Below are positions 19,137-57,423 of a stretch of 64,000 nt of DNA, piece after piece (the stretch's first letter is position 1; every line of letters starts with the position of its first letter). This DNA comes from an uncultured Clostridia bacterium. GTDB taxonomy: Bacteria > Bacillota > Clostridia > TANB77 > CAG-508. The notes below the pieces were generated by a model. That model was not told the origin of the DNA. It ran no database searches and saw only the letters and a program-made list of their open reading frames with translations. The stretch lies in the NCBI GenBank assembly GCA_963557965.1, contig CAUWEX010000004.1, forward strand, positions 649-64,648, in the 5' to 3' direction. The position numbers were made by a program, and so were the translations under genes.

Positions 19137-20819
19137 ATGAAGAAAAATAGGGGAATAACATTAATTAGTTTAGTAATTACCATAATAGTATTATTGATAT
19201 TGGCGTCTATAGCAACATACGCTGGTATTAACGTAATTAGGGATACCCATTTTACAAGATTTGCAACAGCATTAAAAATTACGCAAACAAAAGTTAATGA
19301 AATGTATGAAAGTTATACTAATAATAAAACAATAGAAGTTAATGGGCAAAAATATACAGGAAATGAGATTTTAAATATAGGAAAAGATATATCGACTGTT
19401 CAAGAACAAGCCAATAAAGTTTTTACTGCAAGTGAATCAGGAATAACAGATACTACAGGATACAAATATTATGATAAATTTCTTGTAGAGGAACTTAATA
19501 TAGAAGGCGCAAAAGACGAGGAATTTTTTATAAATATAGAAAAAAGAAGTGTAGTAAGTTATGATGGAATGTCGTATGAAGGAAAAAATTATTATACTTT
19601 AGCACAAATTCCAGATGGATTATATAATGTTGAATATGAGGATAAAAACACGGGAAAACCAACATTTGATGCAAGTGCTGGAAAAAATCAAAAAGGAAGT
19701 TATACCATTACAATATCTAATATACAATTTAGTGGATATATAGATAAATGGCAAGTAAAATATCAAAAAGAAGGCCAAGATTTTTGGTCAACATCAGATG
19801 AACTTAAATTTGATGTAAATGAAAGTGGAAGATATTTAATATATATTGAAAATGGCAATGTAAAATCGGATATAAACAATGTAAATACAGATAAGAAATT
19901 AAGTTCAATAACAGGAAATGAGACTAATAATAGTGTGGCGCAAGACAGTTTGGGAAATCAAGTGGTAGTACCACCAGGGTTTATAGTACAAAATCCTAAC
20001 GATAACGTAACAGATGGAATAATAATACAAGACGTTGATAAAAACAGACCAACATATGGAAGTGAATTTGTTTGGATACCAGTAGGTACGGTAAATAAAC
20101 CTGATGGTGGGATAGAGACAATTAAGTTGAGTAGGTACAAATTCGGAAATTCAAATCAAAGCTTTCAAGAATACGGTGAAGAAGTGATAGACAACCAATA
20201 TGTAGAACAAGAAATGTCAAATTTAGGAAATACAACAGCAAAAAATCTCACAGACTTCAAGACAAGCGTTAGTAAAAATAAGGGATATTATATAGGAAGA
20301 TATGAAGCACGAGACGCTTGGGCTAGTGGACCACGTTGGGGCGGAAGCGGAACTTCAAGTCCTGTAACGTGTACAGCCAACAATTATATATACACATATG
20401 TTACACAACCAAAAGCTGCACAATTATCAAGAAATATGTACAAAGATGAAGTAGTACATAGTGATCTACTGAATAGTTATGCATGGGATACGTCTTTAGT
20501 GTTTATACAGAAATTTGGAAAAAATAAAGGATATTTACAGAGCACGGGATCTATAGCGGCAAAACTTGACAAAGGAACAGTGAATACATCTTATGAAGAT
20601 GTTGAATGCCATATATATGATTTAGCAGGAAACGAAATGGAATGGACAACAGAAACAATTATTAATAATGGAAATTACTGTTGCCTTGCAAGAGGAGGAT
20701 ATTATTTTAATAGTGGAAGTTTTGCGGCAGTTGGAGTAAGAATGCATGAAAGCAATTCAACGGGAGATATTAATAGTGGTTATTACTCGTTCAGACCAAT
20801 TTTATATATAAACTCATAA
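19137..20819 (+). CDS. Pilin-like (class III signal-like N-terminus) protein with C-terminal FGE-sulfatase/C-type-lectin-fold domain
   Basis: MKKNRG-ITLISLVITIIVLLILA N-terminus. C-terminal GYYIGRYEA ... LARGGYYFNSGSFAAVGVRMHES...YYSFRPILY resembles SUMF1/FGE-type CLec domains. ATG 19137 follows GGAGG. Confidence 0.65.
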   Translation: MKKNRGITLISLVITIIVLLILASIATYAGINVIRDTHFTRFATALKITQTKVNEMYESYTNNKTIEVNGQKYTGNEILNIGKDISTVQEQANKVFTASESGITDTTGYKYYDKFLVEELNIEGAKDEEFFINIEKRSVVSYDGMSYEGKNYYTLAQIPDGLYNVEYEDKNTGKPTFDASAGKNQKGSYTITISNIQFSGYIDKWQVKYQKEGQDFWSTSDELKFDVNESGRYLIYIENGNVKSDINNVNTDKKLSSITGNETNNSVAQDSLGNQVVVPPGFIVQNPNDNVTDGIIIQDVDKNRPTYGSEFVWIPVGTVNKPDGGIETIKLSRYKFGNSNQSFQEYGEEVIDNQYVEQEMSNLGNTTAKNLTDFKTSVSKNKGYYIGRYEARDAWASGPRWGGSGTSSPVTCTANNYIYTYVTQPKAAQLSRNMYKDEVVHSDLLNSYAWDTSLVFIQKFGKNKGYLQSTGSIAAKLDKGTVNTSYEDVECHIYDLAGNEMEWTTETIINNGNYCCLARGGYYFNSGSFAAVGVRMHESNSTGDINSGYYSFRPILYINS

Positions 20820-27917: not shown

Positions 27918-28001
27918 GCGGATGTGGCGGAATTGGTAGACGCGCTGGTCTTAGGAACCAGTGCCAACGGCGTGGGGGTTCAAGTCCCTTCATCCGCACC
28001 A
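27918..28001 (+). tRNA. tRNA-Leu (anticodon UAG), class II with long variable arm; integration target of the island
   Basis: Acceptor GCGGATG/CATCCGC, anticodon stem CTGGT/ACCAG with loop CTTAGGA, long variable arm, T-loop TTCAAGT, encoded CCA. Promoter TTGACA...TGcTAATAT lies upstream. Confidence 0.9.
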
Positions 28002-28181
28002 TAAGAAAAATCGATGTAAGTAGCTTGTATCTGAGGATACAGGCTACTTTAACGTTTGGTAACTAATAAATTTATTGTATAATTTCTAATATTTATTTTT
28101 CACTAGAGCCACAAGGGATTTCACGATTTTTAATTTTTATTAATTTTTTGTAGTAAAAACTGTTCACTCAACAAAAATTGA
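27989..28181 (+). repeat. attL-side direct repeat (tRNA 3' end plus ~180 bp downstream)
   Basis: ttcatccgcaccataagaaaaatcgatgtaa...cactcaacaaaaattga recurs at 41625-41817 with only a handful of substitutions. Confidence 0.9.
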
Positions 28182-28311: not shown

Positions 28312-29526
28312 TTATAATTCTTTTTCACTTTCTGCTAATTGTTTTGGCTGATTTAAAGCTAAATTTTCTCTTAAATAATATTGATTTACTTTATCAATTT
28401 CATTTTCCTTAAATTTATCAAAAACAGAAGTATATGTATTTAAAGTAATACTAATATCTTTATGCCCCATAAGTCTTTGAACTACAACGGGAGCCATACC
28501 GCTTTCAATACATCTTGTTCCGAAAGTATGTCTTAAACTATGAGTAGAAATATCAGTAATATTAAACTCTTTTTTCAATATTCTTTTTAGCTCATTATTA
28601 ACATTAGAACGTCTAACATATTTACAATTTAGAGGCTTAAATAACAACTTTTCATCATTGTTTATTTGGGTATTGGCAATTTGCATTTGCTCAACAATAT
28701 ATGGGTATAAAAAATCAGGAATAGGCAATATTCTTTTTCCAGCATATGTTTTAGTTTTATTACCCATTATAACATTTCCGATTTCATCGATTGATAAAGT
28801 TCTATGAACATTGATCTTTTTATGTTGCAAATCAATATCATGAGTAGATAGGGCAAGAGCTTCACCGACACGCAACCCCATATACATTTGAATTAAAAAT
28901 ACATTTCTGTATTTATATTTATCTACAGGCTTATTAATTAACCAATGTGTGAAGTTTTGTTGTTCTTCTACTGTGAGTGCTCGAACAATTTTATCTTCCT
29001 TACTACTTTGAGGTCTAATAACATTAAGCATAGGATTTCTCATTATATAACCTTTATCCATTGCTATTTTAAAAGCTTGGTTTAATTGTTGATAAGCTTT
29101 TTTTATCATAGAATTACTTAGGTTATCTTTTAGAGAAGTTAGGTATGCTTGTAATTCTTCTGAAGTGATATCAGATATATTTTTATTACCAAAAGATGTT
29201 TTTTCTAAATTTTGAATTGTAATAAGAACCCTACCGTATTGAGAAGCAGATATTTGATTAGTATCTCTTTTTAAGTTTAAATTTTGTTTAAGAAGTTCAC
29301 ACATAGGTATTCCATGGTGTTCGATATATAATGCGTTTCCTTTTTGATACATAATTGTACTTAAATATTTTTTTGCTTCTTCCTCTGTTTTAAAACTTTT
29401 GGTTCGTCTTACGGTTTTTCCTTTGTTTACATCATATTCATAAAATTGTGCTAACCAATTTTTTCTTTGCTTATTAAAATATATAGAACCTTCACTACTT
29501 CCTTTAATAGGCATATTATACACCAC
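28312..29526 (-). CDS. int: Tyrosine-type site-specific recombinase/integrase
   Basis: C-terminal catalytic region LRVGEALAL, HSLRHTFGTRCIESG and LMGHKDISITLNTYTS (R..HxxR..Y). Confidence 0.92.
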   Translation of the reverse strand: MVYNMPIKGSSEGSIYFNKQRKNWLAQFYEYDVNKGKTVRRTKSFKTEEEAKKYLSTIMYQKGNALYIEHHGIPMCELLKQNLNLKRDTNQISASQYGRVLITIQNLEKTSFGNKNISDITSEELQAYLTSLKDNLSNSMIKKAYQQLNQAFKIAMDKGYIMRNPMLNVIRPQSSKEDKIVRALTVEEQQNFTHWLINKPVDKYKYRNVFLIQMYMGLRVGEALALSTHDIDLQHKKINVHRTLSIDEIGNVIMGNKTKTYAGKRILPIPDFLYPYIVEQMQIANTQINNDEKLLFKPLNCKYVRRSNVNNELKRILKKEFNITDISTHSLRHTFGTRCIESGMAPVVVQRLMGHKDISITLNTYTSVFDKFKENEIDKVNQYYLRENLALNQPKQLAESEKEL

Positions 29527-34281: not shown

Positions 34282-34638
34282 ATGTTAAAATTGGAAACAA
34301 CAATAGTAATTTATAATATAATAAGAAAACTAGGAATAATACCTACACTAAAGGGGAGTAAGTTATTAGTAAAAGCAATTGAAATTCTAATAGCTAATGA
34401 AAATGAATTTATTGTTTTTGAGGATTTATATAAAATAATAGCCATGCATTATAGCCACTCTAATAGTGTACAAATTAGAAATGCAATTAAATATGCAATA
34501 GATAATAGAGATGAAAACAAAGCGATTACAAATTTTGAAAAGATTTTTGGTTATGAATATAGCCCATATTATTTTACTAATAAAACTATAATAGAAGAAA
34601 TTGCAAGAATAATAAGAATAGGGGATATTCTTACTTAG
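34282..34638 (+). CDS. Stand-alone Spo0A C-terminal (DNA-binding effector) domain protein, no receiver domain
   Basis: IIRKLGIIPTLKGSKLLVKAIEILI...LYKIIAMHY...VQIRNAIKYAI...FEKIFGY...TNKTIIEEIARII follows the Spo0A_C pattern (GVP.HlKGy.YL..AI, LY..IA, RAIRHAI, LFGY, TNSEFIA). Confidence 0.7.
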   Translation: MLKLETTIVIYNIIRKLGIIPTLKGSKLLVKAIEILIANENEFIVFEDLYKIIAMHYSHSNSVQIRNAIKYAIDNRDENKAITNFEKIFGYEYSPYYFTNKTIIEEIARIIRIGDILT

Positions 34639-34880: not shown

Positions 34881-35035
34881 ATCAGGTTTTTGTTGCTGTC
34901 TTTTTTCGTGAGAAAAAACAAGTTAGTGAGTAGCAATGCTAAAAAGTAGAGTTCAAGCTAAAACTTATTTTCTCATATAAAATAGTTATTAAATTTTTAA
35001 ATTTTAAAATATAAAAAAATAAAGGAGGAAAAAAC

Positions 35036-36265
35036 ATGAAAGAAAAATTAAAAGGAAGGAAAGGTATTACACTAATTGCGTTAGTAATAACACTAATCGT
35101 GTTATTAATTTTAGCGGGTGTATCTATAGCAATGCTAACAGGAGAAAATGGAATATTAACACAAGCAACAAGTGCAAAAGAAAAAACAGAAAAGGCGGGA
35201 ATAATAGAAAGGGCACAAACAGACTTATTAGGACAACAAGTAAAAACAACAGATGGACAAGTAACTAAACCAATGTTAAAGGCAGTACTGGATACATATT
35301 TTAGTGATGTACCTGAAGCAGATGCAATAGAGTTAAGTACAGAACTAACATCTAAAGAAGGAAATTATAAAATACAAGTATCAGAAATTTATAATGGAAC
35401 ATTTGGAACAGGGGAAAAGCCAACAGGAGGAATATCAAGTTCAGAAATAGCAAATGCAGCAGATAAAAGCGAATATTATGGAGCGATAGTAAATGGGTAT
35501 GAACTACCAAGTGGAACAAATACAGATGTAAAATGGAAAATATTTTACGCAGATGAAAGTAATATTTATTTAATAGCAGATAATTATGTAGAAAAAGTAA
35601 ATTTACCAAATAGTACAACAGAAGCAGGGGTAACGATAGAGGGAGCAAACCACAAGCCAAATGATGGAAATAGCAGTTATCCGAGAGCAGCATATTTTAG
35701 TAATATACTAGGAGATTATGCCGGTTCAGCAAGGATAACAGACAGAAAATTAAAAGCATTAAATAATAGCTATTTTAATGAAAATAATTTTACAAGTACA
35801 AATAATAATATGAAATCAGTAGCATATATGATGGATACAAACGCTTGGAACAGTAAATTTAAAGATGTAAATAATAAGGCAGAATATGTAATTGGTGGAC
35901 CAACAGTAGAAATGTTAATGAAATCATATAGTCAAAAACATGGAGTAGATTATCAAGCAAGGGCAGAAAATGCTACAGGATATAAAATAAGTAACGATGG
36001 AGGAACAAGCTGGGAATATTATTATTCAGGAATGTTAGATACAAGTGATAGCTTATATGTAATAAGCTCACAGAGCGATGCTTATGGAATGTGGGTGGCT
36101 AGTCCCTCTGCCGATGGCGCTGCCTATGTAATGAGTGTGCGCTGCAGCGGCGGTGTGATCTATAGCAGCTATATCAATGACTACTATGGGTTCCGTCCGC
36201 TAGTTTCTCTAAAATCTGATGTCCAACTTCAAAAAAATGAAGACGGAACATATACAATACTATAA
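35036..36265 (+). CDS. DGR target protein: pilin-like N-terminus plus C-terminal C-type-lectin-fold (DUF1566/FGE-like) variable domain
   Basis: MKEKLKGRKG-ITLIALVITLIVLLILAGVSIAML N-terminus. C-terminus WVASPSADGAAYVMSVRCSGGVIYSSYINDYYGFRPLVSL is encoded by the VR, which matches the TR. Confidence 0.9.
   Translation: MKEKLKGRKGITLIALVITLIVLLILAGVSIAMLTGENGILTQATSAKEKTEKAGIIERAQTDLLGQQVKTTDGQVTKPMLKAVLDTYFSDVPEADAIELSTELTSKEGNYKIQVSEIYNGTFGTGEKPTGGISSSEIANAADKSEYYGAIVNGYELPSGTNTDVKWKIFYADESNIYLIADNYVEKVNLPNSTTEAGVTIEGANHKPNDGNSSYPRAAYFSNILGDYAGSARITDRKLKALNNSYFNENNFTSTNNNMKSVAYMMDTNAWNSKFKDVNNKAEYVIGGPTVEMLMKSYSQKHGVDYQARAENATGYKISNDGGTSWEYYYSGMLDTSDSLYVISSQSDAYGMWVASPSADGAAYVMSVRCSGGVIYSSYINDYYGFRPLVSLKSDVQLQKNEDGTYTIL
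36092..36208 (+). other. DGR variable region (VR)
   Basis: 117 nt colinear with TR 37167-37283. There are 22 differences, every one at a TR adenine, plus one C/T difference near the 3' edge after the GC-rich gggttccgtccgctag block. Confidence 0.93.
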
Positions 36266-36338: not shown

Positions 36339-36788
36339 ATGAGTGTTATAAGTATGGCAAGAGATATAAAAAAGGTTCATCCAAATGATACTGTAATGTA
36401 TAAGGTGGGAAACTTTGTACAAGCATTTGGAAAGGATGCATATGTATTATCTTATATATTCGACTATAAATTGAGAAATACCAAAGATAATATCCAAACA
36501 TGCGGATTTCCTAAAAATGCTATACCAAAAGTTATGAGCAAATTAGAACAAAAGAAGGTTAATTATATCATTATAGATACAAGGAATAATTATGAAGTTG
36601 ATGAAACTTTTGACAATAAAAATTTAAATAGTTATGAAGAAACAAGTAAAAAAGCTCAAAAGTATATAAAAATAAAGAAAAGAATTCAAAAAATAGAAGA
36701 AGAGCTGGTTGCTAATATGGATAGTATAAAAATAATGGATAAGATAAGAAAGATAGAAGAAATCGTATATGAAAACAGAAAAGTTTAA
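36339..36788 (+). CDS. DGR accessory protein with MutS domain-I-like (mismatch-binding-like) fold, MSL type
   Basis: YKVGNFVQAFGKDAYVLSYIFDYKL...TCGFPKNAIPKVMSKLEQKKVNYIIID parallels MutS domain I (GDFYELFxxDA...GVP...Y...L...GxKVAIcEQ). The Phe-x-Glu motif reads F-V-Q. Coiled-coil tail. Confidence 0.6.
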   Translation: MSVISMARDIKKVHPNDTVMYKVGNFVQAFGKDAYVLSYIFDYKLRNTKDNIQTCGFPKNAIPKVMSKLEQKKVNYIIIDTRNNYEVDETFDNKNLNSYEETSKKAQKYIKIKKRIQKIEEELVANMDSIKIMDKIRKIEEIVYENRKV

Positions 36789-37116
36789 AGTAATCCAATT
36801 TATTAGGGAATTATTAATTATTATAGATAAAAACATGGATAATTTTCCTAAAAAAGATATCGAATTAAAAAATCGAATAAGAAGTAACACATATGACCTA
36901 TTAGAGATTGCATATGAAGCTAATAGCATAGAAGATGTTAATATAAAAAATCAGCTATTAAATAAAATGATAGCAAAAATAAAAGTAATAGATTTCTTAC
37001 TAAATTTAACATATGACAAACAAATTATAACGGAAAAGAAATATTATAAACTTGGAAACAAACTTGATGATATAATAAAATATATCACTGGCTGGAAAAA
37101 TGCACTTAAAAAATAG
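36769..37116 (+). CDS. avd: DGR accessory variability determinant (Avd; four-helix bundle, 23S rRNA IVS protein family)
   Basis: 115 aa; NMDNFPKKDIELKNRIRSNTYDLLEIAYEAN...KYYKLGNKLDDIIKYITGWKNAL fits the Avd pattern. Lies immediately upstream of the TR. Confidence 0.8.
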   Translation: MKTEKFKVIQFIRELLIIIDKNMDNFPKKDIELKNRIRSNTYDLLEIAYEANSIEDVNIKNQLLNKMIAKIKVIDFLLNLTYDKQIITEKKYYKLGNKLDDIIKYITGWKNALKK

Positions 37117-37446: not shown

Positions 37447-37476
37447 AAGTAGTACATTTGATTGTACTACTTTTTT
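37447..37476. terminator. Bidirectional hairpin terminator shared by the TR transcript (+) and the RT gene (-)
   Basis: aagtagtaca tttgat tgtactactt is a perfect 10-bp stem followed by a T run. The RT stop codon (37467-37469) lies inside the stem. Confidence 0.75.
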
Positions 37477-38432
37477 AACGTAAATAAATTATTTCTATTG
37501 GATAAACTTTGATAACACCTTAAGCTAGAAATAAAACTTCCAAGAGGAATTTTATTACTTTTATATAATTTATATCTACTCTTTAATTTTCGTTTGACAT
37601 TTCTATATCTAGCATATTGAAAATTAGAATTTCGACCTAAAAATAAAAAATTATTAGTATTTTTATATATCCTGGTTTTTATATTTAATTCTAGTTTTTC
37701 TTTTTCTAAAAAATTTGTGATTTCAGATAAGCAATATTTCAAATAGTCTTTTGAAGGATGAAACAACAAAAAATCGTCTTGGTAACGCACATAATATTTA
37801 ATCTTTAGAGTTTCTTTTATAAAATGGTCTAAATCGTTCAAATAAAATATAGCTAAAATTTGACTAGTCATAGAACCAATAAATAGACCTTCAGTATTGC
37901 TATCAATAATATCAAATACAATTTTGATTGCATCTTTATCTTTTATTCTTCTTAATAGTTTTTTCTTTAAAATATCATGATTAATATTAGAAAAAAATTT
38001 ACTAATATCACATTTTAGAATATAGTATGAACCATATTTAATTTTACATTTTTTATGAAAAGAAGCTGCTAATTCTAGGCCCTTACTAGTTCCCATATCT
38101 TTTCTACTAGCTACATTAACGTCAAGTAAACAAGGTAAAATTGCAGGATATAAAATGTATCTTGCTACTAAGTGATTAACAATTTTATCTTGTACATTTT
38201 GACTTACAATTAATCTTTTTTTGGGTTCGTAAATAATGAATTTATTATATGGTCCTATTTTATATTGTTTGTTTTTTAATATTTCATGAATTCGTGAGAT
38301 ATAAATTGATTTATATTCTTTTAAATTTTCTACTCTTCTTTCATTGCGTGTATTTTTGCAAACTTCATTATAAGCAGAAATAATATTATTAAAATTATAG
38401 ATATTAGAATATAAATTTCCTTTTCTTTTCAT
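37467..38432 (-). CDS. DGR reverse transcriptase
   Basis: RT motifs including LFIGSMTSQILAIFYLN (DGR-type [I/L]GxxxSQ) and YVRYQDDFLLF (YxDD). 321 aa. Adjacent to the TR but on the opposite strand. Confidence 0.9.
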   Translation of the reverse strand: MKRKGNLYSNIYNFNNIISAYNEVCKNTRNERRVENLKEYKSIYISRIHEILKNKQYKIGPYNKFIIYEPKKRLIVSQNVQDKIVNHLVARYILYPAILPCLLDVNVASRKDMGTSKGLELAASFHKKCKIKYGSYYILKCDISKFFSNINHDILKKKLLRRIKDKDAIKIVFDIIDSNTEGLFIGSMTSQILAIFYLNDLDHFIKETLKIKYYVRYQDDFLLFHPSKDYLKYCLSEITNFLEKEKLELNIKTRIYKNTNNFLFLGRNSNFQYARYRNVKRKLKSRYKLYKSNKIPLGSFISSLRCYQSLSNRNNLFTLKK

Positions 38433-38775: not shown

Positions 38776-39705
38776 TTATCTATCGAAAGTTTTTATAAAA
38801 TTATCAACTAAAGATTTAAAAGTATGTATAGGAAAATTAAATAGGTGTTTTATAACTTCGAAAGTTTTATCAATATAATTCTTTAGGTTATGATTTTCCT
38901 GTTTTAAAGTAATATTTTCTTTTTGTAGATTTTCTACTTTATTTATAGCAAAATAGGCTTTGCTTAGTTGTAATTTTAATTTATTATTATTTTCAATTAA
39001 AGTTTGATTTTGCTTAAGTAATAAATGTGTATCTTGTGTAGGAATACATTGTTCTTGTTTATTTTGTAGTTCATATTTTATATTATCATAATTAGTAACT
39101 TGTTTTAATGTTTTTATTGGGATATGGACATTATCTTTAGTATTGCCGCGTTCTAAATCAAAACCATGTTCAATCATATAAGTATAAAAACTGTCTTGTA
39201 ATTTCCTATAACTGTCTTTGCCTTTCCAATATTGACTACAAGCAATTTTTTTAATAGGATTACCATTTTTATCTTTTGTATGAACAACTGGAACAAAAAC
39301 CAAGTGTAAATGTGGAGTGGTTTCATCCATGTGAACTTTGCTAGATAAAATATATTTTTCACCTAAATTTTTATAATTTGCAACAAAGTTATGAGCAGTT
39401 TGAAAATATCTTTTTGTTTCTTCTTCTCCAATACTTTTGAAAAAGTCGTTATCAGAAGTAATTATAAATTCACATACTACGTTTGTTGTTTTTATTATTC
39501 TTCCTTGTAAGTTATTTTCCTGTATTAATTTTTTTAGTGCATTTGAATATGTAGTGTTACACTGTTTAATTGAATAATTTTTTATTAAATTATTTTTACT
39601 AATATCTTTGTTTGAGTAATTAGTATTTTTTCTTTCGTTATGTTTATATAATCCTGCTAAATTATCTTTCTTATAATTAGCATTTCTAATAATAGCATAA
39701 CTCAT
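38776..39705 (-). CDS. mob: MobV-family (Pre/Mob) relaxase
   Basis: N-terminal MSYAIIRNANYKKDNLAGLYKHNERK and the HxDE...PHxH motif (VHMDETTPHLHLVFVPV). C-terminal coiled coil. Confidence 0.88.
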   Translation of the reverse strand: MSYAIIRNANYKKDNLAGLYKHNERKNTNYSNKDISKNNLIKNYSIKQCNTTYSNALKKLIQENNLQGRIIKTTNVVCEFIITSDNDFFKSIGEEETKRYFQTAHNFVANYKNLGEKYILSSKVHMDETTPHLHLVFVPVVHTKDKNGNPIKKIACSQYWKGKDSYRKLQDSFYTYMIEHGFDLERGNTKDNVHIPIKTLKQVTNYDNIKYELQNKQEQCIPTQDTHLLLKQNQTLIENNNKLKLQLSKAYFAINKVENLQKENITLKQENHNLKNYIDKTFEVIKHLFNFPIHTFKSLVDNFIKTFDR

Positions 39706-40201: not shown

Positions 40202-40453
40202 ATGACAATGAAACAACAAGAATTGTATGATGTTATTGAAAGTTTACCAGAAGAACTTTCAATAAAAGCAATTGATTATATAGAATACCTAAAATTTACT
40301 TATTCATTTATTAAAGCTCCAAGCGACCTAATTGTAAAAGATGAAAAAGACTTATTAGTAAAACTACAAAAAGGTATAAAAGATACTGAAGAAGGGAAAG
40401 TATGTTCTGTTGAAGAAGCTTTTGCAGAAGTTAATGAAATCTTATTAGGTTAA
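40202..40453 (+). CDS. Type II antitoxin partner of ParE (family not assigned)
   Basis: 83-aa acidic protein immediately upstream of, and translationally adjacent to, the ParE-like toxin. Confidence 0.6.
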   Translation: MTMKQQELYDVIESLPEELSIKAIDYIEYLKFTYSFIKAPSDLIVKDEKDLLVKLQKGIKDTEEGKVCSVEEAFAEVNEILLG

Positions 40454-40470: not shown

Positions 40471-40785
40471 TTGGACAAGTATAAAGTAGAATTATCAATA
40501 CAAGCAAAAAATGATTATAAAAGTATTATTCATTATATAAAGTATGAATTATTAGAACCTACTATTGCAGAAAAATATGCTAATCTAATAAGAAATGAGC
40601 TTACTTCTTTAGAATATCAACCTAGTAAATTTTCTATTATTGACCATAATGAGATTAAAAAATATCAGTTTAGAAAATTAGTTATGAAAAATTATATTGC
40701 GTTTTATCGTATTAATGATAAAGATAAGATAGTGAATGTTGAGAGAATTTTATATAATGCTAGTAATTGGATGGATAAATTATAA
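40471..40785 (+). CDS. parE: Type II toxin, ParE/RelE superfamily
   Basis: 104 aa; YKVELSIQAKNDYKSIIHYI...FRKLVMKNYIAFYRINDKDKIVNVERILYNASNW fits the ParE pattern. TTG start after AGGAGG. Confidence 0.75.
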   Translation: MDKYKVELSIQAKNDYKSIIHYIKYELLEPTIAEKYANLIRNELTSLEYQPSKFSIIDHNEIKKYQFRKLVMKNYIAFYRINDKDKIVNVERILYNASNWMDKL

Positions 40786-40917: not shown

Positions 40918-41214
40918 ATGTGCCAACAAGCTATAGAAAAGTTAAGCAAAGGTATATACGTATATACTTTCGATAAAGAAGCACCATTTACTCATAATAT
41001 TAACGTTATTTTAAAAGATATCGATAAAGTTATAAATTCGATTGAGTATAAAAAATTTGAATCTTTATTTGCAACTTTAACATCATTTTATATAATAGGT
41101 AGATATGATGTATATAAACAAAAAATTTCAAAAGATTTAGATAATAAATCTAGCAAAGAATTATTAAATAAATCAAAGGAGGCGTTTGTATGGTTAAAGT
41201 CCCTTCAAACATAA
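40918..41214 (+). pseudogene. HEPN-domain protein (toxin of a HEPN/MNT pair), apparently N-terminally truncated at repeat R2 and lacking an RBS
   Basis: Begins CQQAIEKLSKGIYVY...THNINVIL...IIGRYDVY, i.e. mid-way through the usual first HEPN helices. No SD precedes the ATG (atcaattttttATG). Overlaps the MNT start. Confidence 0.55.
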
Positions 41215-41516
41215 TTAAATTAATTGAAAAATTTATTAAATTACTAAAAGAAGAAAATATAGTGGTTGAAAAAGTAATTCTATTTGGTTCTTATGCTAAG
41301 GGAACATATAGAGCAGATAGTGATATTGACTTGGCAATTGTCTCTCCTAACTTTAAGGAAGAAGATTGTATTGAAAATATGACATTTCTATTATGTAAGG
41401 CTAACATACTAAAGGCAGATATTCAAACTTTGCCTTTTAGTATAGAAGAATACAACGAACCTAAAGGGATAATGGAAGAAATTTTGAATACTGGAATAGA
41501 ACTTAAAGTTGCATAA
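41190..41516 (+). CDS. MNT-type nucleotidyltransferase (antitoxin of the HEPN/MNT type VII module)
   Basis: VILFGSYAKGTYRADSDIDLAIV is the GSxxxGxxxxxSDxD Pol-beta NTase motif. Confidence 0.85.
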   Translation: MVKVPSNIIKLIEKFIKLLKEENIVVEKVILFGSYAKGTYRADSDIDLAIVSPNFKEEDCIENMTFLLCKANILKADIQTLPFSIEEYNEPKGIMEEILNTGIELKVA

Positions 41517-41624: not shown

Positions 41625-41817
41625 TTCATCCGCACCATAAGAAAAATCGATGTAAATAGCTTGTATCTAAGGATACAGGCTATTTTAACGTTTGGTAACT
41701 AATAAATTTATTATATAATTTAAAATATTTATTTTTCACTAGAGCCACAAAGGGTTTCACGATTTTTAATTTTTATTAATTTTTTGTAGTAAAAACTGTT
41801 CACTCAACAAAAATTGA
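41625..41817 (+). repeat. attR-side direct repeat (copy of the tRNA-Leu 3' end plus downstream 180 bp)
   Basis: Matches 27989-28181. Differences include a compensatory pair in the hairpin (aGtagc..gctaCt vs aAtagc..gctaTt). Confidence 0.9.
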
Positions 41818-49402: not shown

Positions 49403-50503
49403 ATGGCTACAAATCCAATGCAAAGAAAAGCAAGAAACTCATTTTTACTAGGAATGCTAGTAATGCTATTGATATCAGGGGTGATTATAGCATTATTATT
49501 TATGCAATTGATGGGGAAAATGAAAGAAGAAAAAGAAGAATTAGCAAACAGCTATACAGCATATGTATTAAATCAAGATGTTAAAGCAGGGCAAACTATA
49601 ACTGAAGATATGTATGTTACTAAAACTGTAAATAAAGCATTAGTACCAAGTAATGCAACTAGTGATTTAAGCATTATTCAAAATTATGCATTAAAAGATA
49701 AAGAAGGAAATGCAGTAACTACAGAATATCGTACAGCAAATGGAGAAACTGTTGCAACAATGTATATTACATTAAATAATACAAAATATGAAGTTAAAAA
49801 AGAAGAAGAAACAGACAGCTATTATATAACAAGAAATGGGCAAAAAGAATATTTAGATCTAGTATCAGCACCATTAATAGCAAAAGTAAACATGAAAAAA
49901 AATACACTAATAACAACAGATTTACTTTCACAAGGTACAGTTAAAGATGATATTAGAAGACAAGAATATAATGTTGTAATAATGCCACTTGATTTATCTA
50001 CAGGAGATTATATTGATATAAGACTTATGTTACCAAATGGACAAGATTTTGTAGTAGTTTCTAAAAAAGAAGTAGAAATTCCTAGTGTAGGAGGAGTAGA
50101 TTCATCAGATACAATGTGGGTTAACTTATCAGAAGATGAAATTTTACATATGAGTTCTGCAATAGTTGATGCAGCTAGCTTAAATGGAGCAAAAATTTAC
50201 GCAACTAAATATACAGATCCAGGAATACAAAATGCATCTACGCCAAACTATGTAGTAAGAGATGCAGTATCTAAAGAATTACAAGCAGATCCAAATATAT
50301 TAGCAAGCGCTATGGAAACATTAAGAGCAAGATATAACGCAATAGATACAGGAACAATGAATGCATATAGAGAAAATGCTCTTAATAGCCAAGGAGATCA
50401 AATACAAACAAACTTAGAAACTAAAATGGAAGAAAGTATAACAAATTCAAAAACTACAAGAAAAGACTACTTAGAAGGATTAACAGGAGCAACAACAGAG
50501 TAA
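49403..50503 (+). CDS. Tad-like locus: CpaB/RcpC-like protein (N-terminal TM, SAF-like domain)
   Basis: TM anchor, then YVLNQDVKAGQTITEDMYVTKTV..LVPSNA (SAF-like) and TGDYIDIRLMLPNGQD (CpaB beta-clip-like). Confidence 0.6.
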   Translation: MATNPMQRKARNSFLLGMLVMLLISGVIIALLFMQLMGKMKEEKEELANSYTAYVLNQDVKAGQTITEDMYVTKTVNKALVPSNATSDLSIIQNYALKDKEGNAVTTEYRTANGETVATMYITLNNTKYEVKKEEETDSYYITRNGQKEYLDLVSAPLIAKVNMKKNTLITTDLLSQGTVKDDIRRQEYNVVIMPLDLSTGDYIDIRLMLPNGQDFVVVSKKEVEIPSVGGVDSSDTMWVNLSEDEILHMSSAIVDAASLNGAKIYATKYTDPGIQNASTPNYVVRDAVSKELQADPNILASAMETLRARYNAIDTGTMNAYRENALNSQGDQIQTNLETKMEESITNSKTTRKDYLEGLTGATTE

Positions 50504-50515
50504 AGGAGAAGAAAC

Positions 50516-51214
50516 ATGAAAAAAATAGGGTTTATAGGGGCTTATGATAAAACAGATTTAATTATAAATATAGCAAAAATATTAACAGTGTTAAATCAAA
50601 AAGTACTAGTAATTGATGCTACAACAAATCAAAAAGCTAGATATGTGGTGCCTGTTATAAACCCTACAACAGCATATGTAACAGACTTTGAAGATATGGA
50701 CATTGCTGTGGGGTTTTCAGGCACAGAAGAAATAAAAAGATATCTTGGTGTTGCAGATGATCAAGATATGGAATATGACGTTATGCTTGTAGATACAGAT
50801 AACTACAAAGGATTTGAAGATTTTAAATTAACAGAAGCACAGAAAAACTACTTTGTGACTTCTTTTGATGTATATTCATTAAAAAAAGGGCTTGAAATAT
50901 TAAGCGGTCTATCTGAACCAATAAGTATAACAAAAATTTTATTTTCTAAAGAAATGCTAAAAGAAGAAGACGATTACTTGAACTTTTTATCACTTGGATA
51001 TAAAACGATATGGGATGAATATAGAATTTATTTTCCAATCGAAAATGGCGATTTAAGTGTTATTTATGAAAATCAAAGAGTTGCAAAAATAAAGTTTAAG
51101 AAATTAAGTGTTCAGTATAAAGATGGACTAGCATATATATCAGAAGAAATACTAGGGGACGCAAATGAGGCGAGAGTTAGACGAGCCATAAAAACAATAG
51201 AAAAAGGAGTATAG
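50516..51214 (+). CDS. Tad-like locus: TadZ/CpaE-like ParA/MinD-fold protein with degenerate P-loop
   Basis: IGFIGAYDKTDLIINIAKILTVLNQKVLVIDAT has the ParA/MinD layout but no GKT/S Walker A lysine motif. Confidence 0.5.
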   Translation: MKKIGFIGAYDKTDLIINIAKILTVLNQKVLVIDATTNQKARYVVPVINPTTAYVTDFEDMDIAVGFSGTEEIKRYLGVADDQDMEYDVMLVDTDNYKGFEDFKLTEAQKNYFVTSFDVYSLKKGLEILSGLSEPISITKILFSKEMLKEEDDYLNFLSLGYKTIWDEYRIYFPIENGDLSVIYENQRVAKIKFKKLSVQYKDGLAYISEEILGDANEARVRRAIKTIEKGV

Positions 51215-51216
51215 AA

Positions 51217-52056
51217 ATGTCAATTATTACATTTTGGAATGATGGTAAAGAGCAAACAGGCAAAACACTATCAATGGCTGCAATTGCAACATATATGGCT
51301 ATTGAACATAATTACAAGATTTTGGTGATTTCTACAGGACATAAAGATGAAGTATTAGAACGTTGCTTCTGGGAAGAAAAGAAAAAAAGAAGAAATCTTG
51401 GTTTGTTTGGACCTAACACTAATACTGGAATTGAAGATGGAATAGTTGGGATTGAAACTGTTATGAGAAGTAACAGATTACAACCTGAAAATATTACCAA
51501 TTATACGAAAATTATATTTAAAGACAGATTAGAAGTGCTACCATCATTTAAAGGTGAAAAGATAGAATATGAAGAAATAAAAAGAAATTATCCAGATTTA
51601 ATAAATTTGGCTAATAAATACTATGATATGGTTTTTGTGGATTTGGATGCAGAGCTTGGACCTGAAATAGCAGACGCTATTATACAAAGTTCTAATCTTA
51701 TAGTTGCAAATCTAAGCCAAAGACTATCTAGTATAAATAAATTTATGAAGCTAAGAGAAGAAAATCCGATATTAAATTCAAAAAAATCATTAATATTGAT
51801 AAATAGATATGACAAATTTTCTAAATACACTATAAAAAATATGACAAGATATATGGGTGAAAAAAATAAATTATTAACAATACCATACAATACATTATTT
51901 TTTGAAGCATGTGAAGAAGCAAAACTTCCAGACTTATTTTTAAGGTTTAGAAGAGGTATTGATGAAGAAGATAGAAACTATATCTTTACAACAGAAGTAA
52001 AAAGAGCTTCGGATGCAATTGTGTATAGAATACAAGATTTAGCAATGAAAATTTAG
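51217..52056 (+). CDS. Tad-like locus: TadZ/CpaE-like ParA/MinD-family ATPase
   Basis: ITFWNDGKEQTGKTLSMAAIATYMA (Walker A-like) and MVFVDLDAE (Walker B-like). Confidence 0.6.
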   Translation: MSIITFWNDGKEQTGKTLSMAAIATYMAIEHNYKILVISTGHKDEVLERCFWEEKKKRRNLGLFGPNTNTGIEDGIVGIETVMRSNRLQPENITNYTKIIFKDRLEVLPSFKGEKIEYEEIKRNYPDLINLANKYYDMVFVDLDAELGPEIADAIIQSSNLIVANLSQRLSSINKFMKLREENPILNSKKSLILINRYDKFSKYTIKNMTRYMGEKNKLLTIPYNTLFFEACEEAKLPDLFLRFRRGIDEEDRNYIFTTEVKRASDAIVYRIQDLAMKI

Positions 52057-52081
52057 CAAGTAAGGAGGGTGGACTAGAACC

Positions 52082-54061
52082 ATGACAATAACCAATATTG
52101 TTTTAATACTAGTTGTTATAGCTGTTGCAGGATATGTAATATACTATAGCATTAAAAAGAAAAAAGAAGCACCAGTTGAAACAGCAGTAAATGTTGATGA
52201 TAAAACTTATACAATCGATATGATGATGAATTTTGTCAAAAGAAGATTAGATGAAATTACAAAAATCAACTTATATGATATAGGTCTTTCAGAAGAAGAA
52301 TTAAAAAGAAGAAAAAATAAAAAGTATGAATTGAAAAAAGCATTAAAAGGCTGTACATATGGTGATGTAAATGACAAAAAATATGTTAAAGAATTAATTT
52401 TTGACTTATTAGAAAAAGAATATGGGGTTACAGAAGCCAATATATCAAAAGCAATTCCTTTTGATATTCCATCTTTACTTACAGCACAAGACAAATTCGA
52501 TATTTTGATTTATGCATATAAAAAAGAATTTGGATATGAAGCTTTAACAGAATTAATAAAAAAATACAGCTTAGCTGAATTAAAATATGTAGAAGGAGAG
52601 ACAAAACCTTCTTATGTTATAACACCAGAAGAAATTGAAGATATTTACGAAAAAGAAAAAATAGTATTATCATTTGCTGATAAATTAAGTGTAGTTGTAC
52701 AAAGGATATATCAACGTTACAAAGGATATAGTGCTATAGATGAAGTAAGAGACATGAATATAGACGGTGTATCTGGAGGTGTATCTGGTTTACCTGAAAG
52801 CTTTTTAAGCCAAGTTGCACAAACAGATGGAGATTATTTAAACCAAGTAACAGAACATAAAGTTCCGAGAGCATGTGATAGTATCTGGATATTTTTCCAA
52901 GGTAAATCAATACGTTTAGCATTTTTATCATTTGGTACAGAATCAGAATTAAAAAGGGTATGTCAAAACATTTATAAATACAATAATCCAGGACAATTAT
53001 CAGATACAAATGGTTATAAAATTAACGAAATGAAAGATGGTTCTCGTGTTGTTGTTGTAAGACCAAGTTTCTCTGAGACATGGGCATTCTTTGTAAGAAA
53101 ATTTGACGTTAAAAGAGCAACATTAGAGCAATTGGTAAGAGATCCGGGAAAAGATGATGCAATAGAATTGTTAAAATATTTAGTAAAAGGAGCAAGAATT
53201 ACAGCAATTACTGGAGAGCAAGGATCTGGTAAAACAACATTGCTTATGGGTATGATAGAAAATATCTACGAAACAATGAACATAAGGGTTCAAGAAACAG
53301 CATTCGAGCTTCACTTAAGAAAAATATATCCAACAAGAAATATTTTAACTTTCCGTGAAACAGATACAATTTCTGGACAAGAAGGTCTGGATGTTCAAAA
53401 GAAAACTGACGGTTCTGTTAACATCATAGGTGAGGTTGCAACAGACCCCGTAGCATCTTGGATGATACAAGCAGCTCAAGTTGCATCTAAATTTACATTA
53501 TTTACTCACCATGCTAAAACATTCCCTAACTTAGTAACTGCATTAAGAAACTCAATGTTAAGAACAGGGGTGTTTACAGACGAAAAAACAGCAGAAGAAC
53601 AAGTTGTACAAGTTTTAAACTTTGATATACACCAAGTAAAAGACTTTAGAGGAAAAAGATATATAGAAAGAATTACAGAATGTATTCCAATAGAAAGTAA
53701 AAGCGAATACAATTTTGATCACAGAAAAGAAAAGACGTTAGAAGGAAAATTTGATAAATTTTTTGATAATGCTACAAGATTTTTTGAAAAATCAACAGAT
53801 AAGCAGTTATATACATATAGAAACATAATGGAATATATTGATGGGGAATATGTAATAACAAACCCAATATCAGATCAAAACTTAAGAGATATGAGAAACA
53901 ACATGGATGCTGCAGATGTAGAGCAGTTTGATAAATTCGTTGAAAAACATTGGGGAAAACAATTAAACAAAACAGCGATGGAAAAAGAAACAGTAACAGT
54001 ATCAGCAGAAGCAGAAGAAAAGCCAAAAAGAAGAGGAAGAAAAAAGAAAACAGAAGTTTAA
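52082..54061 (+). CDS. Tad-like locus: CpaF/TadA-family secretion ATPase with N-terminal TM anchor and basic C-terminal tail
   Basis: Walker A ITGEQGSGKTTLLMGM, Asp/Walker B region SVNIIGEVATD, His box LFTHHAKT. The N-terminus MTITNIVLILVVIAVAGYVIYYSIKKKKE is a predicted TM helix. The tail is KPKRRGRKKKTEV. Confidence 0.8.
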   Translation: MTITNIVLILVVIAVAGYVIYYSIKKKKEAPVETAVNVDDKTYTIDMMMNFVKRRLDEITKINLYDIGLSEEELKRRKNKKYELKKALKGCTYGDVNDKKYVKELIFDLLEKEYGVTEANISKAIPFDIPSLLTAQDKFDILIYAYKKEFGYEALTELIKKYSLAELKYVEGETKPSYVITPEEIEDIYEKEKIVLSFADKLSVVVQRIYQRYKGYSAIDEVRDMNIDGVSGGVSGLPESFLSQVAQTDGDYLNQVTEHKVPRACDSIWIFFQGKSIRLAFLSFGTESELKRVCQNIYKYNNPGQLSDTNGYKINEMKDGSRVVVVRPSFSETWAFFVRKFDVKRATLEQLVRDPGKDDAIELLKYLVKGARITAITGEQGSGKTTLLMGMIENIYETMNIRVQETAFELHLRKIYPTRNILTFRETDTISGQEGLDVQKKTDGSVNIIGEVATDPVASWMIQAAQVASKFTLFTHHAKTFPNLVTALRNSMLRTGVFTDEKTAEEQVVQVLNFDIHQVKDFRGKRYIERITECIPIESKSEYNFDHRKEKTLEGKFDKFFDNATRFFEKSTDKQLYTYRNIMEYIDGEYVITNPISDQNLRDMRNNMDAADVEQFDKFVEKHWGKQLNKTAMEKETVTVSAEAEEKPKRRGRKKKTEV

Positions 54062-54094
54062 GTACTAAATATAAAAAGGAGGTGCTAATTAAAA

Positions 54095-56185
54095 TTGGAC
54101 AATACATTTATATACTATATAATGGGTGGGGCAGCAGGAGCCTTTGTAATTATCATACTTTTATATTACGTACTATCTAAAAAGATGCAAACTTCTGAAT
54201 ATAAAAAGATTCAAAGATTACAACAAGGAACAAAAGAAAAGAAATTTTCAACAGAAGTATTATTTCAAAAATTATACTTAACTTATATAAAAATACCTTT
54301 TATAAAAAGATATGCTTTAAAGATTAGAAGAAGGCTAGAAATTATCAATATAGATGATGAATACAACACAAGAAAAGGAACAGCAAAAATATTGACAAAA
54401 TCACTTTTAATAGTAATCCCAATAATGGTAATTACTATTATGATTACAATGCAAAACTTTTTGCTAATGAGCATATTACTATTGTTTGAATTATTTATGA
54501 TTGATACTTTTATAGATGGTTCAGTTGATAAAATAGATAATAATATATTAAAAGAACAAATAGACTTCTTTTCTGAAATAAGACATGCATATCATGAATA
54601 TAACATGGTTGAAGAAGCGATATATCAAGTATCGCAAGATGATGAAAAAGATATTTCACGTCAAGGTGAAAAAATATATGAAATCTTAATATCTGATGAC
54701 CCTGAAACAGAATTAGAAAAATATTATGATATAGCACCTAATAATTTCTTAAAAGAATTTGCAGGGGTATCATATTTAACAAAAGAGTTTGGTGATAGAA
54801 AAGTTGATGGAGCATCATTATATTTAAAAAATGTAAACAACATTACACAGGAAATGCAGCTAGAAATATTAAAAAGGGACAAATTAAACTATGTATTTCA
54901 AAGTTTATCAGTAATATCAATTGCGCCGGTATTATTGTTAGAACCCCTAAAAAACTGGGCAATATCAAACTTTTCATTTACAGCGAGCTGGTATAATGGA
55001 AAAGCTGGTATGATAGTACAAATTTTAATATTATTAATTACATTTGTATCTTATATTTTAGTAAGAAAACTAAAAGATAATGGTTCAACTGCTATGAATA
55101 CTAAAAATACAGAGAACCCATGGCAAGCAAGAATATATAGAAAAAAACCGATAAAGAAAATAGTTGACTTATTTATTCCTAAAAAAGGAACAAAAGAATA
55201 TAGAAAAGTACAACAAATGTTGAAAGATGCCGCATCACCACAAAAAATGGAGTGGCTATACATAAATAGAATATGTATTGCAATAGTTACATTTTTTGCT
55301 TCGGTTATTCTATTTACACAGTTACATCAAGTTGCGATAAACTATATTTATACTGAGCCGACCACAGAATATGACATAATGGGAGGCTTGTCGGATAAAG
55401 ACGAACAGAAAGCTTTAGAATTAACAAAACAAGATAATATTATACTTGATAAATTTAGAGGAAAAACTAAAACGACACAGCAGCAAATAGAAAAAGCAGT
55501 TGCAAAAGAAAAATTTTACGAAGAAGCAAGCGATGAAGAAATAGTTGCAGCAGCAGAAAGAATTTATGGGAAATTACAAGTTATAAATACAGAATATATG
55601 AAATGGTTTGAATTACTACTGGCATTTGTTTTCTCAATACTTGGCTATATGGCACCACTTGGAATTTTATTCTTCCAAGTTAAAATGAGACAATTGGAAA
55701 TGGAAGATGAAGTAATGCAATTCCAAACAATAATCTTAATGCTTATGCGAATTGAGAGAGTAAATGTTGAAATCATATTAGAATGGTTAGAAAGATATTC
55801 CGATATATTTAAACCATCAATCACAAAATGTGTTAATAACTATGAAGCTGGAGCTTGGGAAGCTCTAGAAGCTATGAAAGACGAAATAACGTATTTACCA
55901 TTGATTAGAATTGTAGAAAGCTTACAAGCAGCAGTAGAAAAAATACCAATAAAAGATGCGTTTGATGAATTAGATTCAGAAAGAGATTATTACCAAGAAA
56001 AGAGAAAAGAATCAAATGACAGACTTATAAAAAGAAAAGGAATGATAGGAAAAGCTATAGGTTTTGCACCAATGGTTACATTGTTTGTAGGATATTTAAT
56101 TATTCCATTGGTATTTATAGGACTAACAAGTATGTCAACATCATTTACAAAAATGACTGCAACAGGTGGCGCTGGAATTAAATAA
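54095..56185 (+). CDS. Tad-like locus: large polytopic platform protein, TadB/TadC (T2SS-F)-like
   Basis: 696 aa with several TM segments. C-terminal region IILEWLERYSDIFKPSITKCVNNYEAGAWEALEAMKDEI...LIRIVESLQAA...ESNDRLIKRKGMIGKAIGFAPMVTLFVGYLIIPL has the T2SS-F layout. Confidence 0.6.
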   Translation: MDNTFIYYIMGGAAGAFVIIILLYYVLSKKMQTSEYKKIQRLQQGTKEKKFSTEVLFQKLYLTYIKIPFIKRYALKIRRRLEIINIDDEYNTRKGTAKILTKSLLIVIPIMVITIMITMQNFLLMSILLLFELFMIDTFIDGSVDKIDNNILKEQIDFFSEIRHAYHEYNMVEEAIYQVSQDDEKDISRQGEKIYEILISDDPETELEKYYDIAPNNFLKEFAGVSYLTKEFGDRKVDGASLYLKNVNNITQEMQLEILKRDKLNYVFQSLSVISIAPVLLLEPLKNWAISNFSFTASWYNGKAGMIVQILILLITFVSYILVRKLKDNGSTAMNTKNTENPWQARIYRKKPIKKIVDLFIPKKGTKEYRKVQQMLKDAASPQKMEWLYINRICIAIVTFFASVILFTQLHQVAINYIYTEPTTEYDIMGGLSDKDEQKALELTKQDNIILDKFRGKTKTTQQQIEKAVAKEKFYEEASDEEIVAAAERIYGKLQVINTEYMKWFELLLAFVFSILGYMAPLGILFFQVKMRQLEMEDEVMQFQTIILMLMRIERVNVEIILEWLERYSDIFKPSITKCVNNYEAGAWEALEAMKDEITYLPLIRIVESLQAAVEKIPIKDAFDELDSERDYYQEKRKESNDRLIKRKGMIGKAIGFAPMVTLFVGYLIIPLVFIGLTSMSTSFTKMTATGGAGIK

Positions 56186-56203
56186 ATTTAAGGAGGATAA
56201 CAC

Positions 56204-56950: not shown

Positions 56951-56964
56951 TAGGAGTATAAAAT

Positions 56965-57414
56965 ATGGAAAATGCATCAAAAGCATTGCTTATGGCTGCT
57001 GGGGTGCTAATAGGGATATTAATATTATCATTAGCAGTATTCTTATTTACAAACTTTGGCTCAGCATCAGCTGAAATTAACAAACAAAATGAAATAAAAA
57101 GAATAAATGAATTTAATGTACAATTTACTGTATATGAAGGAAAAGAATGTACAATACATGATATAGTTTCGGTTGCAAATTTAGCTATGAATAATAATTC
57201 TAATTATTCTTTAACTGCACAAGCAGACAACAATTATTATATTTCTGTTAATATAAAATCAGGACAAGCTGATTTACAAGAAATTTTAAAAGAAAATGAT
57301 AAAGTAAATGAGTTAATAATAGATGAAACTAATAAAAAATATAGATGTAATGTCGAGATAAGTGAGAATACTAAAAGAGTAAAAACAGTAAATTTTATAG
57401 AAATTAAACAATAG
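56965..57414 (+). CDS. Tad-like locus: pilin-like paralogue 2 (149 aa)
   Basis: MENASKALLMAAGVLIGILILSLAVFLF followed by FNVQFTVYEGKECTIHDIVSVANLAMNNN. Confidence 0.6.
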   Translation: MENASKALLMAAGVLIGILILSLAVFLFTNFGSASAEINKQNEIKRINEFNVQFTVYEGKECTIHDIVSVANLAMNNNSNYSLTAQADNNYYISVNIKSGQADLQEILKENDKVNELIIDETNKKYRCNVEISENTKRVKTVNFIEIKQ

Positions 57415-57423
57415 AGGATTTAT

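Follow-up and report, generated by a model that had tools for sequence, protein, structure and literature searches.

A type IV pilin-like head on the target of a mobile diversity-generating retroelement in uncultured gut Clostridia

Introduction

What kind of protein is varied by the diversity-generating retroelement (DGR) of an uncultured Clostridia bacterium, and how could that protein be displayed on the cell? The locus in question lies in a stretch of 64,000 nucleotides of contig CAUWEX010000004.1 (the whole stretch is called the window below), in which a mobile element carries a DGR whose target gene, at 35036-36265, begins in the manner of a type IV pilin. An earlier interpretation made from the letters alone (the sequence-only reading) had taken the target for a lectin-headed, pilin-like adhesin under DGR control. 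Here we follow up that reading by computational comparison. We consider it probable that the target is a modular type IV pilin, that the DGR diversifies its lectin-like module and that a mobilizable element delivers it; most likely it works as an adhesin on type IV pili, one whose binding site can be reprogrammed.

Results

The DGR target begins with a pilin-like head

The target protein opens with a basic leader of 10 residues, MKEKLKGRKG, which ends in Gly10 and is followed by ITLIALVITLIVLLILAGVSIAML, with Ala at position +5 counted from the Gly. This confirms the N-terminus as first described, and we infer that a prepilin peptidase would cleave after Gly10. Only two open reading frames (ORFs) of the window have a pilin-type head: the target and the protein encoded at 19137-20819, which we call the paralogue. 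The AlphaFold2 models of both have a 57-residue N-terminal helix (residues 13-69 of the target, whose hydrophobic stretch is residues 11-34, and 5-61 of the paralogue), and in the target a small alpha/beta subdomain follows at residues 78-114.

When profiles made from diverse heads were compared with the PDB sequences, the top matches were almost all type IV pilins, those matched being Geobacter PilA-N, PilA, MshA, PilE and PpdD. Register was kept along the alignments, which run from the basic leader past the Gly into the helix, with the Gly at -1 as in the pilin cleavage site. The best E-value was 8.6e-5 for the paralogue-type head, whose alignment to PDB pilins extends across the alpha1-C segment, and 0.002 for the target-type head; with a full-length profile of the target family, the best PDB match was Streptococcus sanguinis PilE1, across residues 12-111 and weak (E 0.013). 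Because PDB pilins are top-ranked and in the correct register, the resemblance of the head to pilins exceeds generic hydrophobic similarity.

The last ~275 residues of the target are best read as a DUF6273-type, C-lectin-like module with putative ligand binding. The DUF6273 model (PF19789) matched 32 of 53 members of the target family, the target protein of the window itself being unmatched, and the only significant PDB match of the target model in Foldseek was the IgA peptidase of Thomasclavelia ramosa (E 8.6e-4), the N-terminal domain of which is DUF6273. A study of Faecalibacterium phages (PMC10743442) reports this domain as a DGR target and calls it C-lectin-like. The target thereby shows both parts by which Raynaud et al. 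(2021) recognize modular type IV pilins: an N-terminal pilin motif and a non-pilus C-terminal domain. The paralogue shows them too, its pilin head being joined to an Ig/FN3-like and an FGE-like domain.

The same head occurs on pilins of type IV pilus operons in relatives

Small head-bearing ORFs (127-169 aa, one to three in tandem) are found in the related loci L068, L097, L084, L072, L059, L067 and L105. The first six came from the fetched head loci, where the ORFs around the small head genes were listed, and L105 was reached through a PilC homologue; its gene order is the same as that of the other six. A regex scan of 1.44 Mb of flanks for GFTLxE prepilins, A24 motifs and T2SSE Walker boxes returned almost nothing; it missed the operon because the pilins and PilD of this lineage are non-canonical. 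The genes run from a 539-aa PilM/N fusion through two small membrane proteins, the head-bearing pilins, a 270-aa PilD-like protein and two pilin-like ORFs to PilB, PilT and PilC, with rsmB upstream and a ROK kinase downstream; the head-bearing small pilins thus lie directly 5' of the prepilin-peptidase-like gene. The PilD-like protein matches A24_N_bact at 101-108 bits, PilB matches T2SSE at 310 bits together with MshEN and TIGR02538 at 354-408 bits, PilT matches TIGR01420 at 317 bits, and PilC matches T2SSF at 91 bits and GspF at 171 bits. For the fusion protein the evidence is PF05137 and a weak match to TIGR01175, its PilN and PilM matches being weak. In the membrane part of the PilD-like proteins just two Asp residues are invariant, D126 and D176, which may form the catalytic pair.

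The target and the operon pilins agree at 67-68% of positions along the first 60-63 residues of the target (E 5e-22 to 5e-23), and there the similarity stops. The pilins of L105 read GITLIALVITIIVLLILAGVSIAMLTGENGILTQA, and 34 of their first 35 mature residues are those of the target. The segment MLTGxNGIL, which lies just outside the membrane, is conserved and common to the operon pilins. One operon pilin of a relative passes the threshold of the N_methyl model (22.9 bits). Every presumed major operon pilin carries Ile at +1 and Ala at +5; in one of the minor pilins, residue +5 is Asp (GFTGID, GIVGAD, GIAGID, GYTGID). In two metagenome-assembled genomes (MAGs) the operon and large head-bearing proteins occur together: BRZ_HK__bin22 (L068 with L074 and L080) and ERS329807__bin34 (L084 with L057).

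Since small pilins with the same head sit inside PilM/N-PilD-PilB-PilT-PilC operons, we take the head to be the N-terminus of the pilins of this lineage. The best explanation for the first ~70 residues of the target is therefore that they are the class III signal peptide and alpha-1 helix of these pilins, which supports the sequence-only reading in its inference of a class III signal on a lectin-headed, pilin-like adhesin.

The head is nearly invariant across gut Clostridia and joined to varied modules

More than 7360 homologues of the target and more than 4774 of the paralogue were found, all of them in gut metagenomes and none with an assigned protein name. The head, GITLIALVITIIVLLILAGVSIAMLTGxNGILTQA, is almost invariant among homologues that are just 48-60% identical overall, and with one genome taken per species it is present at no fewer than 464 confirmed loci with varied C-terminal modules. 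The best 80 head loci all come from uncultured MAGs of the class Clostridia (one titled merely "Bacillota bacterium"), recovered from the guts of humans, rabbits, chickens and mice; their median GC content is 27.6%. The leader of the head-bearing proteins always ends in Gly, aligned with the pilin cleavage site. Helix positions 10-17, which lay outside the search pattern for the head, show >=95% conservation in a set of 97 distinct DNA sequences that differ extensively by synonymous changes; residue identity is therefore under selection, as expected for a helix in the core of a filament.

Among the 117 head ORFs of the fetched loci, +1 is Ile in 116, and +5 is Ala in 109, Ser in seven and Val in one; none has Glu. 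The absence of Glu5, which the sequence-only reading had noted for the target, is thus the rule in this lineage, and because the operon pilins lack Glu5 too, Ala or Ser at +5 is a trait of the whole system and no mark of a tip pilin.

Other head-bearing proteins end in Big_2-like or further modules, and some pair a target-type head with a paralogue-type C-terminus. Many members of the family are chromosomal, with no reverse transcriptase (RT) within 10 kb. We rejected the idea of a mainly phage-borne family from scans of viral contigs, in which the single-protein scan gave no match and the alignment scan just six, covering the head only, on other architectures. Tandem arrays of head-bearing proteins (~335-540 aa) were also seen: four at L096:7255-12613, three at L033:2680-10843, and two full-length proteins with a short fragment at L035:2340-6425, some arrays being made of ~430-aa proteins. 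Within these arrays the 3' ends are 70-76% identical and their differences are non-A-specific, so that they look like gene families expanded in place.

The DGR is complete and its variable repeat lies in the probable lectin-like module

The DGR of the window is real, as its A-specific mismatches and its complete cassette anatomy show (Table 1). The variable repeat (VR) in the target and the template repeat (TR) are 80% identical across 123 nt, and 24 of their 25 mismatches fall at TR adenines. The AAY codons of the TR (n = 17) map to residues 360-384 of the target. From no mutable codon of the VR (residues 356-384) can a stop codon be reached, and the theoretical diversity is ~1e22-1e23 variants. 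RT, Avd and a MutS_I-like gene all lie nearby, within 2.2 kb, and in a comparison across the whole window the TR pairs with one VR only.

A-specific VR/TR pairs lie beside head-bearing ORFs at nine loci from different MAGs, the window included, and several of the DGR-bearing head loci keep the order MutS_I-like gene, Avd, TR, RT. At L058, a DGR-targeted head protein is found in a MAG that is ~90% identical, in the flanking proteins, to one of the operon-bearing MAGs.

Some details of the cassettes may be recorded here. The RT of the window is on the strand opposite to TR, Avd and target, as it is in L023, L040 and L053, and is co-oriented in L055. The MutS domain I-only protein (149 aa) is encoded between target and Avd, overlaps the Avd start by 20 nt, and is kept in related DGR cassettes at 39-95% identity. 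The target homologues P0037, P0040, P0043, P0046 and P0059 stop early within the VR and have out-of-frame tails (for example ...VMFVFCFRQRRLFQRLH); such endings may reflect frameshifts or a mis-assembly of mixed VR populations.

The cassette is carried by a mobilizable element

The DGR cassette sits on an integrative mobilizable element of 13.6 kb, which is bounded by 63-bp direct repeats and encodes a tyrosine integrase and a Mob_Pre relaxase. The claim that the DGR is on a mobile element is supported further by a near-identical element in L023, where the MutS_I-like protein is 95%, Avd 91% and RT 90% identical. The element also holds an IS3 element and a toxin of the ParE family, confirmed by Pfam, at 40471-40785; a small ORF upstream of the toxin (40202-40453) has no Pfam match. 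A second, overlapping pair of small ORFs at 40918-41516 may, judged by eye from the translation, be of the HEPN/nucleotidyltransferase kind. Just 5' of the target, a stand-alone protein with the C-terminal DNA-binding domain of Spo0A is encoded at 34282-34638 (PF08769, E 3e-11); it could be a regulator of the DGR cassette.

A second pilin-headed protein varies by domain replacement

In the paralogue, MKKNRG is followed by ITLISLVITIIVLLILASIA, with Ser at +5. Its head and that of the target share 23 of 36 residues (BLASTP, E 9e-8), and this N-terminal pilin segment is all that the two proteins have in common. In the model of the paralogue the helix is followed by an alpha/beta domain at residues 62-155, then by an Ig/FN3-like domain at 176-250 and finally by a C-terminal domain; in Foldseek against the PDB only FN3/Ig domains were matched. 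The assignment of its C-terminus to the FGE-sulfatase/CLec type is weakly supported, by PF03781 in three of 32 family members and by PDB profile matches to pFGE and PvdO at E 0.2-0.4.

The gene lies directly 3' of tRNA-Gln and 5' of lysS. Its placement in the core genome is borne out by other contigs of the same species, where it is found between rplS/YgjP-like and lysS, and by a relative, where the orthologue is directly 5' of lysS. We also considered whether the TR of the DGR could serve the paralogue from a distance and rejected this, as nothing in the window resembles a TR for its 3' end and the TR fits one VR only. Nevertheless, to call it a non-diversified paralogue is right only as to the lack of a TR and the shared head, because it is not static. 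In strains with identical LysS, residues 1-320 are 96-100% identical, yet the last 240 residues are 45-55% identical, which means that the binding domain was swapped whole and not by DGR mutation; when the alleles at window 20100-20819 and L003:2200-2908 are compared, the whole C-terminal domain is seen to be replaced. The best explanation is that 19137-20819 encodes a second pilin-headed adhesin, which varies between strains by replacement of its C-terminal domain.

Other surface structures encoded in the window

The sequence-only reading had pointed to a Tad-like locus at 49403-61293 as the filament machinery of the window. We rejected it as the assembly machinery for the target: its pilin-like ORFs start differently (MENASKAL...) and share nothing with the head, and the locus has no A24 peptidase. 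This divergent locus encodes a SAF/CpaB-like protein, ParA-like ATPases, a weakly matching T2SSE ATPase and a membrane protein of 696 aa, as well as four ORFs (56204, 56965, 57939 and 58388) in which MENA(S/A)(K/E)AL is followed by a hydrophobic helix. Its first gene (49403-50503) has an 85%-identical homologue in L020, where the fetched stretch ends. Elsewhere, at 7302-8675 on the minus strand, a secreted vWA protein is encoded that has a GBS104-like tip-pilin Ig domain and a C-terminal LPKAG, hydrophobic stretch and basic tail. It looks like the tip adhesin of a sortase-dependent pilus, and the organism may therefore have a second kind of adhesive pilus.

Table 1. Coordinates of the features discussed. 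Positions are those of the window unless a locus name is given.
Feature	Position	Strand	Basis
Shine-Dalgarno AGGAGG, seven bases 5' of the target ATG	35023..35028	+	direct sequence reading
DGR target gene (modular pilin-like protein, 409 aa)	35036..36265	+	homologues (see text); AlphaFold2 model, pLDDT 79
Leader peptide with predicted prepilin-peptidase site after Gly10	35036..35065	+	sequence; register of PDB and operon pilins
Alpha-1 helix (residues 11-34 = hydrophobic alpha1-N)	35066..35242	+	AlphaFold2; L105 pilin alignment
DUF6273-type (C-lectin-like) module, probable, ~residues 135-409	35438..36262	+	family Pfam matches; Foldseek
Variable repeat, residues 353-393, diversified codons 356-384	36092..36214	+	TR comparison
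MutS domain I-like DGR accessory gene	36339..36788	+	PF01624, E 4.8e-9; kept in related cassettes
Avd accessory gene	36769..37116	+	bAvd PF22296, E 4e-9, and DivGenRetAVD NF033474, E 4e-10, both scoring below their curated cut-offs
Template repeat, 47 adenines, 17 AAY codons	37167..37289	+	VR comparison
DGR reverse transcriptase, convergent with TR	37467..38432	-	RVT_1, E 5.7e-16
Left direct repeat (att), 63 bp	28119..28181		3' of tRNA-Leu (27918-28001)
Tyrosine integrase of the element	28312..29526	-	PF00589, E 6e-27
Mob_Pre relaxase of the element	38776..39705	-	PF01076, E 2e-40
Right direct repeat (att), 63 bp	41755..41817		repeat match
Core pilin-headed protein, 560 aa, no TR	19137..20819	+	alpha1, alpha/beta, Ig/FN3-like and FGE/CLec-like C-terminal domain
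Type IV pilus operon	L068:7118-17228		
Type IV pilus operon	L105:563-10347		

Discussion

We propose a scheme for the display of the target that starts from its N-terminus. The basic leader and alpha1-N would insert the protein in the membrane with the N-terminus inside and the C-terminus outside, and the PilD-like peptidase of the lineage would cut it after Gly10. The PilB/PilC/PilM-N machinery could then build it into pili made of the small pilins, which have the same alpha1-N. By analogy with PilB and PilC of S. sanguinis, the target would most likely stand at or near the pilus tip, a location also favored by its bulky module. Meanwhile RT, Avd and the MutS_I-like protein would copy the TR RNA with adenine-specific errors and replace the VR with the copy: the anatomy and the mismatches are observed, and present activity is putative. 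With alpha1-N so nearly the same in different species, a diversifiable adhesin brought in by the element could fit the resident pilus of a new host. A wider picture follows, which we offer tentatively and with clearly less confidence than the modular pilin itself: a large clade of gut Clostridia may have Glu5-less (Ile1/Ala5) pili and a divergent PilD, and may use alpha1-N as a universal "plug" for dozens of modular adhesin pilins, a plug exploited by DGR-bearing mobile elements that move hypermutable pilus adhesins between species, where the machinery of the recipient could still assemble them.

Several observations weigh against reading the target as a pilin, and the first of them concern the protein itself. 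Glu at +5, the usual hallmark of pilins, is replaced by Ala in the target and Ser in the paralogue. The Pfam N_methyl model (PF07963) gives 13.8 bits for the target and 19.9 for the paralogue against a threshold of 21.2, and TIGR02532 gives no match. Structure prediction, the check that had been suggested for both proteins, yielded the N-terminal helix in each, but Foldseek against the PDB found no pilin match for either model; and because the homology between target and operon pilins stops at about residue 65, any globular pilin head in the target is putative. In the relatives, the PilD-like proteins have no match to Peptidase_A24 (PF01478) at E<=1 and none in NCBIfam: their peptidase domain is divergent, and for a peptidase activity the two invariant Asp residues are all there is to point to. 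Moreover, the head-bearing genes are mostly orphans that lie apart from pilus machinery.

The remaining adverse points concern the window organism. As had been stated, the window has no canonical set of PilD, PilB and PilC, and none of the three was found in it or, on other contigs of the same species, within 10 kb past either end. A tblastx comparison of type IV pilus loci with contigs of the window species, together with one PilC look-up, gave no link, and common housekeeping genes did not connect the pilus-bearing MAGs with the window organism. What these MAGs share with it is low GC content, gut origin and the head family. In a profile search with PilC, the best 120 of 5974 matches were all at least 81% identical to one relative, and none was tied to the window species. 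The housekeeping proteins of the window organism are 70-85% identical to those of the head-bearing MAGs L020, L047, L033 and L017-19, for which the operon region is outside the loci kept.

How far, then, could the head serve something other than a long pilus? In Sulfolobus, a surface array of the bindosome type has been proposed for sugar-binding proteins with class III signals. By analogy, the target and its kin might be processed by the PilD-like peptidase and yet be placed in a short pseudopilus or an oligomeric surface array. We think this unlikely. Such display would suit the presence of several head-bearing proteins per genome, some in tandem arrays (L096, L033, L035), whose genes are usually unlinked to the machinery and whose homology to the operon pilins ends after alpha-1. 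However, the operon has a PilT retraction ATPase and tandem small pilins, which are hallmarks of a dynamic pilus, and the alpha1-N of the large proteins is nearly identical to that of the small pilins, which fits co-polymerization.

Less probable again is that the head is never cleaved: it would be a signal anchor of type II, by which a DGR-diversified lectin domain is tethered to the membrane surface, and its likeness to pilins would be ancestral or convergent. Much of what was listed above would be accounted for in this way, namely the missing Glu5, the sub-threshold N_methyl scores, the lack of a peptidase in the window, the peptidase domain of the relatives that Pfam does not recognize and the lack of a pilin fold match. 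A plain anchor, however, needs no residue-by-residue conservation, yet positions 10-17 are kept at >=95% despite saturated synonymous change. Nor would it explain why the MLTGxNGIL segment, which is outside the membrane, is common to the operon pilins, why the leader always has its Gly end at the pilin cleavage position, or why the same head is on proteins encoded beside the peptidase gene. We give very little credence to a third alternative, a tip-cap pilin of the GspK/PilA type in which the missing Glu5 marks the first, capping subunit of the filament: the capping subunit of known systems does lack Glu5 (PMC9934059) and a bulky module favors the tip, but the presumed major operon pilins have lost Glu5 too and one minor pilin has Asp at +5, so that in this lineage the loss of Glu5 singles out no cap subunit.

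A modular type IV pilin thus remains our preferred reading, and it has close precedents. The concept of modular pilins was established for PilB and PilC of S. sanguinis (PMC8179133, PMC9934059). Like the target, these pilins of a monoderm bacterium have a class III signal and alpha-1, a short pilin moiety and a grafted C-terminal module, which is a vWA module in PilB and a lectin module in PilC; the pilus operon of S. sanguinis, like that of the relatives described here, has tandem major pilins, PilD, PilB, PilT and PilC. The target differs from them in having Ala for Glu at +5 and Ile for Phe at +1, in its DUF6273/C-lectin-like module that is hypermutated by a DGR, and in its gene, which is on a mobile element unlinked to the pilus operon; there are, moreover, many such pilins per genome. 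GspK and S. sanguinis PilA resemble the target in that they have no acidic residue at +5. In those systems, however, the cap subunit alone is without Glu5, whereas here this is true of every head-bearing protein examined, the small operon pilins included, and the target has no alpha-domain of the GspK type.

The diversification side has precedents as well. In the tentaclins and Tgt2 of Faecalibacterium phages (PMC10743442) and in the classical CLec targets Mtd and TvpA, the VR is in a C-lectin-like domain with an end motif of the GFRP type, which may also be true of the target, and these systems share with the window AAY-rich TR codons and adjacent Avd and RT. Their targets are phage tail proteins or lipoproteins, whereas the module in the window is fused to a pilin N-terminus and is cellular, borne by the mobilizable element; in addition, the window has its RT on the other strand and a further accessory gene, the MutS_I-like one. 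The DGR of the Bacteroides type V pilus likewise lets a gut commensal vary the binding part of a pilus-displayed adhesin. Type V pili are built from lipoprotein precursors by strand exchange, whereas the carrier in the window is a type IV pilin alpha-helix in a host of the class Clostridia; neither type IV pili nor Firmicutes are mentioned in the paper on that DGR. Among the rare domains that hold a VR, one survey includes a "GspG-type pilin" domain. In the literature we found no paper that ties DGRs to type IV pilins, and a literal search of papers for the head motif was also empty. Both DGR targets and modular pilins have been described before, but not the two combined in a pilus lineage that lacks Glu5 and has a divergent peptidase.

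DGRs are most abundant in the human gut, and in Firmicutes the route by which their variable proteins reach the surface is mostly unknown. The locus in the window offers a testable route, display on a type IV pilus through a pilin N-terminus, much as DGRs of Bacteroides were recently found to diversify the adhesins of type V pili. A widespread pilus lineage without the near-universal Glu5, and with a divergent peptidase, also bears on the role of Glu5 in filament assembly. If our reading is true, gut bacteria would have a novel means of trading and evolving their binding specificities: a mobile, hypermutable adhesin that fits a conserved pilus chassis.

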